A DNA stretch of 4,511 bases from a virus (lineage: Duplodnaviria; Heunggongvirae; Uroviricota; Caudoviricetes), in IMG/VR virus record IMGVR_UViG_2713896778_000015. One strand, 5' to 3'. The translations under genes and the position numbers were made by a program. Below, piece by piece: positions 146-4,218 of this stretch (position 1 is the first letter of the stretch; each line of letters opens with the position of its first letter). The notes below the pieces were generated by a model that saw only the letters and a list, made by a program, of their open reading frames with translations, made no database searches and was not told the DNA's origin.

Positions 146-240
146 AGAAATGAAAAAAGGCCACGCAGTTGCGCAGCCTGATAAACCCTGGTTAAAATCC
201 ACACGATAACAACACAACAATATCAGTATCTCATGCTATT

Positions 241-265
241 GCCCGAACCCATTCGGGCATTTTTT
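241..265 (+). terminator. Intrinsic terminator-like hairpin, plus-strand orientation
   Basis: GCCCGAA-CCCA-TTCGGGC stem-loop (241-258) followed by A-TTTTTT (259-265). On the minus strand the same hairpin is not followed by a U-run. Confidence 0.5.
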
Positions 266-327: not shown

Positions 328-528
328 GCATGTTTGCATGCACATTCTTTTTCTTGCATGGTGCCGGGTGCCTCCCGGTGAATTCAGTACCAGCACCTGA
401 ATCCGCGATTATCCCATATACCTACTCACTGATTGCCCCTCCGCACAGGGGGATTCACCATGCCAGTTTCTTTTAACAAACTCCCCGCAAACCAGACAAC
501 AGTCAACCGCCTGAATTGTGAGACATTT

Positions 529-943: not shown

Positions 944-1362
944 TCACTGATAACAGAGAACTCGCGTGTCGTAACTTTTCTGGCATGCAACTGGCGCTGA
1001 CGGATCCTTTTGACTGAAATAGCAGTCTTCCAGTTTTTCGAACACATCCCACGCCTGATCGGTTTCGAGCATTTTTGCGTGGCGGGCTGCTCCGCGTTCT
1101 GTCCAGAGGATAAGGGAGCGGGCTTTGGGAGAGATGGGATTTTGTGAGTAGTTTAAAGCTACCCGCAATTCTTTAAGGTCATTACCAACAACTTTGAAAA
1201 NNNNNNNNNNNNNNNNNNNNNNNNNNNNNNNNNNNNNNNNNNNNNNNNNNGAATACGCACCGGCTCAGTGCCGTAAAGCTGCGCCAAAAGTTCGGTGGTA
1301 ATAACAGGAATCCGGTTATGGGTGATCGGGGAGAGAGTTTCAACAGAAATTTGAGTTGTCAT
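944..1362 (-). CDS. Phage regulatory protein, Rha/antirepressor-like (tentative), interrupted by the N-run at 1201-1250
   Basis: ATG at 1362..1360 with GAGGG 7 nt upstream. N-terminus MTTQISVETLSPITHNRIPVITTELLAQLYGTEPVRI. After the N-run the frame of ORF 944..1168 is open back to the gap (FKVVGNDLKELRVALNYSQNPISPKARSLILWTERGAARHAKMLETDQAWDVFEKLEDCYF...). The two track ORFs are one gene whose frame is broken by the arbitrary gap length. Family call is from motif recall only. Confidence 0.45.
1201..1250. other. Run of 50 N (assembly gap or masked sequence) inside a gene
   Basis: Literal N characters at 1201-1250; ORF frames on either side differ. Confidence 0.95.
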
Positions 1363-1375
1363 AATGACGCCCTCT

Positions 1376-1443
1376 GGTGGTTTCTAAACTATCACCACCG
1401 TCAGGTTCCAATCATCGGGTGGTGAGACGCACAGGGTTGGAAC
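1376..1443 (-). promoter_or_regulatory. Structured 5' leader of the Rha-like gene: interleaved complementary segments (pseudoknot-capable or alternative hairpins) next to the ribosome-binding site
   Basis: Plus-strand coordinates: GGTGGT 1376-1381, TCACCACC 1392-1399, GTTCCAA 1405-1411, GGTGGTGA 1418-1425, TTGGAAC 1437-1443. 1392-1399 can pair with either 1418-1425 or 1376-1381; 1405-1411 pairs with 1437-1443. The Shine-Dalgarno (complement of 1366-1370) lies directly 3' of the ACCACC segment on the mRNA. Confidence 0.3.
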
Positions 1444-1520
1444 TACCGGGAAACCGACCGGCGAGCTTTTCAGCTCCCCCATGCGCCCCACCATAATTCA
1501 GATGTGCGCGTGCATACGAC

Positions 1521-1545
1521 AATAAAAAACACGCTCGCGGCGTGT
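1521..1545 (-). terminator. Intrinsic terminator downstream of the Q-like gene (tR'-like)
   Basis: Minus strand: ACACGC-CGCGA-GCGTGT hairpin (1545..1529) followed by TTTTTATT. On the plus strand the hairpin is followed by GTCTGTCGCGG, so it is minus-oriented. Confidence 0.6.
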
Positions 1546-1606
1546 GTCTGTCGCGGTCTCTATCCGGGGTTCCAATCCCGACGCCAGATTTTGCTGGCGC
1601 GTGAGG

Positions 1607-1636
1607 AATATAGCCCCGGATAACAGATTGAGTCAA
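1607..1636 (-). promoter_or_regulatory. Candidate late promoter (PR'-like) overlapping the stop codon of the Q-like gene
   Basis: Minus strand: -35 TTGACT (1636..1631), 18-nt spacer, -10 TATATT (1612..1607). Predicted start near 1600, about 75 nt upstream of the terminator at 1521-1545. A 6-bp hairpin CGCCAG/CTGGCG (1582-1599) sits in the initial transcribed region. Confidence 0.45.
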
Positions 1637-3534: not shown

Positions 3535-4020
3535 TTAGTTTTGCTGTTCCATTTTAAACTTGATAGTTTCATACAAAACAATAGTTGCGCCTGTTTTACA
3601 TAATTCCCGGCTGTCATACGCGCGAGACCAATAACACAACCAGTTCTCGAGATCTTCTCGAGTATAGGTTTTGCAGGCCAGTCCCTCTGCCATTTCCACG
3701 ATTTCATCGCCTGGTGCTGTTAATTCATAGCCATTCAACAACAAGAAGACGTAACCAGCCATCATAGCTGTTCGTTTGTTCGCATTAGCAAACGGATGAT
3801 TCTGAATCAGACTTTCAATCAATACCGATGCCAGTACAAACATGTCATTAGTCTGTTCATACCATCGAACCATGCTGGGACGGGCCTGAGAAGAACTTAA
3901 GTTATCTGGACTCAGAACACCAACGAGCTCATCTGGCGTCTGTAATTCAATTAGGGAACGATTGATTTCAACAAGATCATCAACCGTAAGGTAATGCACT
4001 CCTTCAACAATCTCAGCCAT
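3535..4020 (-). CDS. Doc (death-on-curing) / Fic-family toxin-like protein, 161 aa
   Basis: Contains HPFANANKRTAMMAG, matching the Doc-type motif H-x-F-x-(D/N)-(A/G)-N-K-R rather than the Fic HPFx(D/E)GNGR. ATG at 4020..4018; the track start at 4029 is a TTG. Begins 18 nt after the stop of a small upstream ORF. Confidence 0.85.
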   Translation of the reverse strand: MAEIVEGVHYLTVDDLVEINRSLIELQTPDELVGVLSPDNLSSSQARPSMVRWYEQTNDMFVLASVLIESLIQNHPFANANKRTAMMAGYVFLLLNGYELTAPGDEIVEMAEGLACKTYTREDLENWLCYWSRAYDSRELCKTGATIVLYETIKFKMEQQN

Positions 4021-4038
4021 AGAGCACAATACCCATCA

Positions 4039-4218
4039 TTACACTTTTGAAAGTTCTTCCATTGCCTTCTCGTAACGAGAAAAACCGAAATCGAAAGCAT
4101 TTTTCACCTGCTCACGATGAGTGCAATTTTCATCGATAGCCGGGCGCGGAGCTGCCACAACGCTTTTATCGCGAGGGGGAATAGTCAATCGCGGGTGTTT
4201 TTTTAGTGCGTAGCTCAT
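4039..4218 (-). CDS. Small ORF upstream of the Doc-like gene, 59 aa; candidate antitoxin/partner, not in the ORF track
   Basis: ATG at 4218..4216 with AAGGGGGG 6 nt upstream and an in-frame TAA 15 nt further upstream. Translation MSYALKKHPRLTIPPRDKSVVAAPRPAIDENCTHREQVKNAFDFGFSRYEKAMEELSKV. Does not resemble Phd as far as I can recall. Confidence 0.45.
   Translation of the reverse strand: MSYALKKHPRLTIPPRDKSVVAAPRPAIDENCTHREQVKNAFDFGFSRYEKAMEELSKV

Follow-up and report, generated by a model that had tools for sequence, protein, structure and literature searches.

Do two interleaved inverted repeats in front of an antirepressor-like gene form a self-contained RNA switch, or are they parts of a larger RNA system? 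This question is raised by positions 1376-1443 of the 4,511-nucleotide stretch of phage DNA analysed here (the window). A sequence-only reading had described five short segments there, whose pairings were proposed to form a translational or attenuation switch. On the plus strand, these are GGTGG (1376-1380), CACCACC (1393-1399), GTTCCAA (1405-1411), GGTGGTG (1418-1424) and TTGGAAC (1437-1443), and both a direct re-check and a repeat search located all of them at these places. The repeat search returned an 8-nt inverted repeat (1392-1399/1418-1425) and a 7-nt inverted repeat (1405-1411/1437-1443), each matching at 100%, and the interleaving of the two corresponds to an H-type topology. To obtain a null expectation, 20,000 dinucleotide-preserving shuffles of the 68-mer were generated. 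Two interleaved perfect 7-bp inverted repeats occurred in 0.03% of the shuffled sequences, and one such repeat in 8.3%, so the arrangement is real and far from chance. The stability of the isolated 68-nt segment is unremarkable (folded alone, z = -0.79), which rules it out as a structural unit of its own. The signal of the repeats thus lies in specific complementarities and not in overall stability.

All genes of the window are on the minus strand, so the segment has to be read as the RNA 1443..1376. In this orientation, ACCACC (1381..1376) is located one base 5′ of AGAGGG and adjoins the Shine-Dalgarno sequence on the mRNA, as had been pointed out before. Additionally, the segments have partners outside of 1376-1443, namely a 10-nt direct repeat of one of them at 1568-1577, a hairpin loop at 1450-1457 and the 5′ strand of a long stem at 1477-1493.

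The repeats belong to an IsrK-C4 module

Searching Rfam revealed three families in the canonical order isrK, c4-a1b1 and C4 on the minus strand, all of them above the gathering score (Table 1). Positions 1636..1360 of the minus strand very probably constitute an IsrK-C4 RNA module of the 'immunity I' type, carried by a lambdoid prophage. This is a known kind of system, and the window holds one more copy of an already-known immunity switch. The segment with the repeats spans the 3′ third of the C4 RNA (1443..1415) and the leader of the next gene (1414..1376). The interleaved repeats can therefore be explained by a curated RNA family together with a well-studied immunity mechanism.

Table 1. Features of the IsrK-C4 module and its target gene (window coordinates)
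Feature	Position	Strand	Evidence or remark
Promoter, sigma-70-type (TTGACT, 18 nt spacer, TATATT)	1607..1636	-	10/12 matches
IsrK-like sRNA	1524..1600	-	Rfam RF01394, 77.5 bits (gathering 50), model 1-77
c4-a1b1	1561..1613	-	Rfam RF03163, 50.1 bits (gathering 46.7); overlaps the isrK match
a1 site UUGGAAC, loop of IsrK hairpin 2, complementary to a′	1569..1575	-	covaries with a′
b1 site GAGACCG, single-stranded, before the IsrK terminator	1554..1560	-	complementary to C4 loop CGGUUUC
IsrK intrinsic terminator, ACACGC-CGCGA-GCGTGT then UUUUUU	1524..1545	-	terminator scan and Rfam isrK alignment
C4-type antisense RNA	1415..1498	-	Rfam RF01695, 71.0 bits (gathering 45), full-length model 1-87
b′ element, loop of hairpin P3 (UCGGUUUC)	1450..1457	-	pairs with b2 and b1
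a′ element GUUCCAA, junction between P3 and the 3′ strand of stem P1	1437..1443	-	TTGGAAC on the plus strand
C4 3′ end UCACCACC, last 5 nt of the stem P1 3′ strand and ACC tail	1418..1425	-	GGTGGTG on the plus strand
a2 target UUGGAAC	1405..1411	-	same position as a2 in the phage P1 record
Box GGUGGUGA, between a2 and b2, complementary to the C4 3′ end	1392..1399	-	
b2 target GAAACC	1379..1384	-	-22..-17 from the A of ATG; overlaps CCACC 1376-1380
Shine-Dalgarno GAGGG (1374..1370) and ATG (1362..1360) of the ORF6N gene	1360..1374	-	
ORF6N antirepressor-like gene, C-terminally truncated	944..1362	-	Pfam ORF6N, 2.9e-20

The assignment of the sites was transferred from the annotation of the phage P1 record (a1, b1, 77-nt C4 RNA, a2, b2), in which a1, b1, c4, a2 and b2 occupy corresponding positions. 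Site labels follow the P1 nomenclature; the APSE-7 record uses a′ and b′ the opposite way round. In the IsrK-like sRNA, two 5′ hairpins are followed by a single-stranded stretch and then by an intrinsic terminator. The upstream decoy sites a1 and b1 both lie within this RNA. In homologous loci, the promoter pattern TTGAC...GGGGCTATATT is kept at the same place. The terminator consists of a hairpin (1545..1529) and the U run that follows it. A 'late terminator' upstream of the gene had been noticed before; an intrinsic terminator is indeed present and is the one of the IsrK-like sRNA, and it may in addition act as a Q-dependent late terminator. The sites a1 and a2 are contained in a 10-nt direct repeat, GGTTCCAATC, at 1568-1577 and 1404-1413, respectively.

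Between b1 and the C4 loop, a duplex of 7 bp with one G-U pair is predicted (-8.8 kcal/mol), and a complement of the own loop was found at the b1 position in every lineage compared. It has been described previously that c4-a1b1 contains a1, with b1 immediately 3′ of it (Weinberg et al. 2010, supplement). We also considered the hairpin-1 loop of IsrK, CAAAAUC, as a target of the C4 loop. This loop stays the same where the C4 loop changes and is therefore not a specificity site; b1 proper is the segment that follows hairpin 2, in agreement with the supplement of that study. In the same region, an imperfect 22-nt inverted repeat (73%; 1563-1584 and 1599-1620) connects the IsrK promoter and 5′ end with the 3′ side of hairpin 2. 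For c4-a1b1, the supplement of Weinberg et al. 2010 mentions an optional 'third stem', to which this repeat may correspond.

The C4 fold and its pairing with the leader are supported by covariation

The minimum free energy structure reproduces the three-stem fold of C4 RNAs. The closing stem P1 comprises 17 bp (1493..1477 with 1436..1420) and encloses hairpins P2 (1476..1463) and P3 (1462..1445). CACCACC (1424..1418) forms the end of the 3′ strand of the closing stem and the tail, and its main partner is AUGGUGGGG at 1494..1486. The sequences of the homologues carry hallmarks of RNase P excision, with an invariant AUGG at the 5′ end and CACC at the 3′ end. The mature C4 RNA is predicted to extend from about 1492 to 1418, with its 5′ end between AU and GG and an ACC tail at its 3′ end. 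The target a2 starts 4 nt past the end of the Rfam match (1415) and 7 nt past this predicted mature 3′ end (1418). ARAGORN found no tRNA in the window.

For comparison, we collected 160 loci with genes for relatives of the ORF6N protein, and we built a C4 search model from eleven Rfam-confirmed copies. The C4 RNA of the window scores 93 bits with our own model R1. The search gave 27 C4 hits in a set of 82 sources (80 genome loci together with the window and APSE-7) and 78 hits in a set of 80 viral loci. The 3′ end of the RNA is located about 50 nt before the ATG at most of the C4-bearing loci. Two loci contain two C4 RNAs each (L011, 60-146 and 1065-1151; L131, 846-930 and 1995-2078). The L011 copies share the loop allele and differ in the junction allele (UUCC vs UGCA), each with a matching a2. 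No recognisable a2/b2 was seen downstream of the first L131 copy.

Covariation was assessed in an alignment of 46 distinct sequences, P1 and APSE-7 included. The closing stem is 97.1% paired and 11 of its 17 pairs changed on both sides; for P2, the values are 97.8% and 5 of 5 pairs, and P3 is 96.1% paired. The pairing of a′ with a2 reaches 92.6%, with 5 of 8 pairs changed on both sides, and none of 500 shuffles attained the observed value. Where a′ carries an insertion, a2 carries a matching one. In slid controls of the whole structure only 33-47% of the positions were paired, and no shuffle reached the observed values. The GTTCCAA/TTGGAAC complementarity noticed earlier is this a′/a2 pairing: a perfect 7-bp duplex that is conserved and covaries. 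On the other hand, RNAalifold did not find consensus pairs in 39 leaders without C4, which rules out a conserved intramolecular fold of the leader.

The repeats were originally interpreted as a cis-acting pseudoknot of the H type, in which both stems form at once in one transcript and translation is switched, with GGUGGUG pairing alternatively with the CCACC next to the Shine-Dalgarno sequence. Both stems are in fact perfect in the window and both covary, since the second complementarity, CACCACC/GGUGGUG, is likewise conserved (it joins the C4 3′ end and the box). Loops of 11, 6 and 5 nt would be sterically possible, and a precursor forced into the hairpin of the C4 3′ strand with the box lies only 4.1 kcal/mol above the minimum free energy. 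However, CACCACC is the 3′ strand of the 17-bp closing stem, which strongly covaries and dominates the minimum free energy structure. The second stem of the knot takes the terminal 5 nt of the closing stem and the tail, so the two stems do not coexist free of a stronger conserved structure. Judged by the helix length, a 6-nt linker could not return a2 to a′ once the closing stem has formed. The proposed switch pairing is also not conserved: GGUGGUG with CCACC is 59.8% paired compared to 58.0% in shuffles (slid controls, 36-55%), and the covariation that is seen for both other complementarities does not extend to it. A pseudoknot would require neither a1, the upstream duplicate of a2, nor the second pair b′/b2 outside of the knot. 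RNAalifold on the leader alone gave no consensus structure, and the P1 record annotates a discrete 77-nt C4 RNA. We therefore regard the pseudoknot as unlikely. Control at the ribosome-binding region of the downstream gene, at the post-transcriptional level, is what remains of the proposed translational switch; the self-contained leader pseudoknot does not. In place of the pseudoknot, the control would very probably be exerted by a processed antisense RNA with duplicated targets.

The box/CCACC pairing was rejected as a conserved feature, being at the level of shuffles and present only with the b2 allele GAAACCACC. In this allele, the RNA next to b2, ACCACCAGA, copies the C4 3′ end, ACCACCCGA, and the box can therefore pair with both. 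A direct repeat of TCTGGTGGT and TCGGGTGGT occurs on the plus strand at 1373-1381 and 1415-1423.

A leader ORF is not conserved

The RNA also contains a small ORF, and for Gifsy-1 it has been proposed that translation of such an ORF opens the leader of the following gene. By analogy, translation of orf36 (1494..1384) would open the ORF6N leader of the window. This ORF has 36 codons and starts at an AUG inside the 5′ strand of C4. Its stop codon begins 24 nt upstream of the ATG and shares one base, the first of b2, with that site. In Gifsy-1, mutation of the orf45 start or insertion of a stop lowers the activation of anrP (PMC4825925, Table 1C). Across 53 distinct homologues, however, the ORF from the conserved AUG ends anywhere between codon 3 and codon 56, and six run on without a stop. 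In P1 there is a stop inside the loop. These variable ends rule out a conserved leader ORF. The Gifsy-1 authors note themselves that the nucleotide sequence is conserved and the peptide is not (PMC4825925), and conserved nucleotides without a conserved peptide are what an RNA gene would give. Coupling through a leader ORF is thus scarcely probable as an explanation of this locus, and the conservation is read here as that of the C4 RNA.

a′ and b′ occur as reassorted alleles

To examine the specificity of pairing, each element was confronted with its own and with foreign partners over 42 allele combinations. This test was used because the b sites cannot be aligned. The b′ loop pairs with its own leader at -10.5 kcal/mol on average and with foreign leaders at -5.5 kcal/mol. 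Likewise, a′ reaches -8.7 kcal/mol with its own a2 compared to -4.4 kcal/mol with foreign a2 sequences, and the upstream a1/b1 sites show the same preference for the own partner. In total, 18 a′ alleles and 31 b′ alleles are reassorted into the 42 combinations. Judged from their sequences, a′ and b′ are specificity alleles, and such a pattern would be expected of determinants like the ones that set P1 apart from P7. Many of these alleles occur in relatives from E. coli and Stx phages, where they are reassorted in the manner of immunity specificities.

In nearly all lineages, b2 overlaps the Shine-Dalgarno sequence or directly adjoins it, and its 3′ end has a median position of -11 from the ATG. 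The window deviates from most relatives, in which b2 overlaps the Shine-Dalgarno sequence. Its b′/b2 duplex (GGUUUC/GAAACC) comprises 6 bp with -7.3 kcal/mol, and b2 ends 4 nt upstream of the core GAGGG (-12..-8), followed by ACC, an A and then this core. As b2 stops short of the core, occlusion of the ribosome is less obvious in the window than in most relatives.

A box complementary to the C4 3′ end forms a covarying helix

The box between a2 and b2 is the only part of the repeats that is not accounted for by the known system, and we found no role assigned to it. The helix of the box with the C4 3′ end is 92.7% paired and 5 of its 8 pairs changed on both sides, compared to 26-69% in slid controls. 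The duplex energy is -14.1 kcal/mol. Examples are GCGGUAGC/GCUACCGC in L028, GGAGAUGG/CCGUCUCC in L074 and GGUAGCAGG/CCUGCCACC in P1, and the helix is conserved and covaries from P1 to the lambdoid prophages. It competes with the last five pairs of the closing stem, and the cost of forcing it in the precursor is the 4.1 kcal/mol given above. Loci of the Xcc1 class contain an analogous covarying hairpin, formed by the 3′ tail of the RNA with the bases that follow. Possibly, although we propose it only tentatively, the box helix serves as a third helix with a so far undescribed function in the IsrK-C4 system. It might represent a conformation of the precursor in which a2 is displayed in a hairpin loop, or one that gates RNase P or 3′-end maturation of C4 through sequestration of the ACC tail. 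If this were true, the amount of repressor RNA released would be linked to the state of its own target leader. For specialists, this covarying box is the remaining point of interest of the locus.

The nearest remark on the box that we found is that a terminator hairpin is sometimes predicted whose 5′ half overlaps with the 3′ half of the closing stem (Weinberg et al. 2010, supplement). This remark would speak for a transcription attenuator, in which the hairpin formed at 1425..1392 by the box and the 3′ strand of C4 is the terminator and the closing stem of C4 the antiterminator. The covariation of this hairpin would fit, as would the U-rich runs that follow the box in some relatives (L031, L074). 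In the window, however, the strands of the hairpin enclose an 18-nt loop, the sequence after it is UAGUUUAG and not a U tract, and the terminator scan found nothing at this place. Moreover, the closing stem is by far the more stable structure and the first to form as the RNA is transcribed. We consider attenuation at the box very improbable.

The box was also compared with the 8 nt before the AUG. These are 84% paired, which is about the level given by composition (82.6% in shuffles; 68-73% at slides of +/-3), and the G/U-rich box pairs promiscuously. Double changes show a small excess in this comparison (12 vs 4.7).

A putative mechanism of the module

In the most likely mechanism, transcription from the promoter at 1636..1607 would mostly yield the terminated IsrK-like RNA with a1 and b1, together with some read-through. 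The read-through transcript would comprise the C4 RNA and then the leader of the ORF6N antirepressor-like gene with a2 and b2. C4 would adopt its three-stem, tRNA-like fold and would probably be excised by RNase P between AU and GG, leaving the ACC tail. Its a′ (GUUCCAA) would pair with a2 (UUGGAAC) of the leader, and its loop b′ (GGUUUC) with b2 (GAAACC) beside the Shine-Dalgarno sequence. Pairing at a2 and b2 would block the loading of ribosomes on the ORF6N start and possibly also, by polarity, transcription beyond it. IsrK carries the same a and b sequences and would act as a decoy that titrates C4, so that the ORF6N gene becomes de-repressed. The model builds on the family membership, the fold, the covariation of each pairing and the site positions established in this analysis, and we infer from these that its steps operate in this prophage.

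The C4 RNA of P1 is excised from its transcript and acts in trans. For the module of the window, pairing in trans after processing and pairing in cis in the precursor may both be compatible with the sequence. With an intact closing stem, pairing of a′ with a2 in cis looks sterically impossible, as the 6-nt linker would have to span a 17-bp helix. Additionally, the target gene is truncated, and the module may therefore be a relic without protein output.

Genomic context

A prophage of E. coli O121 RM8352 matches the window with 100% identity. In this prophage, the PGAP call for the target gene is 'ORF6N domain-containing protein, incomplete'. This gene had been taken for Rha-like; an ORF6N domain was found in it and not Rha (Phage_pRha). 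Its apparent frameshift in the window is an artefact, because the masked run at 1201-1250 places 50 N where NZ_CP028110.1 has 48 real bases. Neither this run nor a second one at 279-327 keeps the true length. The gene upstream of the module is Q-like, with DUF1133 (1.2e-105) and a marginal match to Phage_antitermQ (26.9 bits, cut-off 26). IsrK is thus located between a Q-like antiterminator gene and an antirepressor-like gene.

Further RNAs and genes were observed in the rest of the window. The prophage sRNAs AgvB (anti-GcvB; 204-265, plus strand) and STnc100 (328-492, minus strand) are full-length Rfam matches with 96.5 and 111.8 bits, respectively, and AsxR gives a weaker match at 215-263. 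PGAP places a tRNA-Met at about 571-641 on the minus strand (L001 5020-5090), where the Rfam tRNA match is only partial (37 bits, model 7-64). A gene for a Fic/Doc-family toxin is encoded at 3538-4029 on the minus strand (PGAP: death-on-curing family toxin). It is preceded by a 59-codon ORF without a Pfam match (4042-4218, minus strand), and the two are probably a toxin-antitoxin pair of the Phd/Doc type inside the prophage.

Comparison with known systems

Other RNAs are found at the same position in front of homologous ORF6N genes. Many genome loci without C4 carry sRNA-Xcc1 (RF02221) at this place. Like P22 sar RNA, it belongs to a different RNA family from C4. In other genera, sRNA-Xcc1 takes the place of C4 at the same distance in L006, L008-L010, L013-L015, L017-L019, L021, L025, L026, L029, L033, L040 and L069 (about 1026-1168 in most; L018 654-738; L021 982-1066). 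The loops of this class complement the Shine-Dalgarno sequence, as judged by eye without statistics. At L038, a P22 sar hit (1084-1155, minus strand; 47 bits) is located on the opposite strand of a Pectobacterium ORF6N leader, and sar is there a third kind of RNA control for the ORF6N gene family. Unlike C4, P22 sar is a true cis-antisense transcript from the opposite strand.

In P4 and N15, the outcome reported for the corresponding RNAs is premature termination of transcription. The IsrK-C4 immunity system has been described for P4, P1, P7, N15 and lambdoid Salmonella prophages (Barquist et al. 2013, PMC3632133). The CI RNA of P4 with seqA/seqC and the CB RNA of N15 are structural homologues of IsrK and C4; in both phages, these are processed antisense RNAs that turn off downstream anti-immunity functions by acting on two sites, located on either side of their own gene (PMC3632133). 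APSE-7 has the same order of RNA families as the window.

The immI region of P1/P7 (c4 - icd - ant; Citron & Schuster 1990; NC_005856) shares with the window the order of promoter, a1/b1, C4, a2/b2 and antirepressor gene, as well as the three-stem fold with a′ in the junction and b′ in the hairpin loop. The promoter of the window is the counterpart of the P1 promoter P1c4 and of PisrK in Gifsy-1. As in the window, a2 of P1 lies a few nt past the C4 3′ end and b2 near the ribosome-binding site, and P1 also has the box (the P1 sequences quoted above, at L163 18433-18441 and 18412-18420; 8 of 9 pairs). There are also differences. The icd ORF between C4 and ant of P1 is absent in the window, where the ATG of the ORF6N gene follows 52 nt after the C4 match without an intervening gene. 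The target is an ORF6N-domain protein instead of Ant1/2. Unlike in P1/P7, the a1/b1 part of the window ends in its own intrinsic terminator and is thereby a separate small RNA (IsrK), and the host element is a lambdoid prophage with the module downstream of a Q-like gene.

The isrK-orf45-anrP region of Gifsy-1 (PMC4825925) has the same order as the window, with a Q-like gene, IsrK and its terminator, a conserved stretch of about 135 nt and an antirepressor-like gene. The two differ in their alleles (a′/b′ UUCC/CGGUUUC in the window, CGCC/CGGUGAU in Gifsy-1). The stop of the small ORF overlaps the start of the next gene in Gifsy-1 (AUGA), unlike in the window, and the target gene is truncated in the window and not in Gifsy-1. 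For Gifsy-1, it has been reported that IsrK activates in trans, supported by compensatory mutations (PMC4825925), and that a species of about 80 nt is processed from orf45 (Hershko-Shalev et al. 2016, PMC4825925). One locus of our sample, L106, is base-identical at all 12 published Gifsy-1 mutation positions (C18, G28, G31, A107, G114, A119-G121, C159, C162, G173 and C175; Hershko-Shalev et al. 2016). In the numbering of that study, the AUG that is invariant in the 5′ strand of C4 is the start of 'orf45', which spans the C4 RNA. Helix d-II of Gifsy-1 corresponds to the closing stem of C4, and the validated compensatory pairs G28/C162 and G31/C159 to a1/a′. With 'orf45' matching C4 base for base, the 2016 model of Gifsy-1 can be read as a decoy, IsrK, acting against an antisense repressor, C4.
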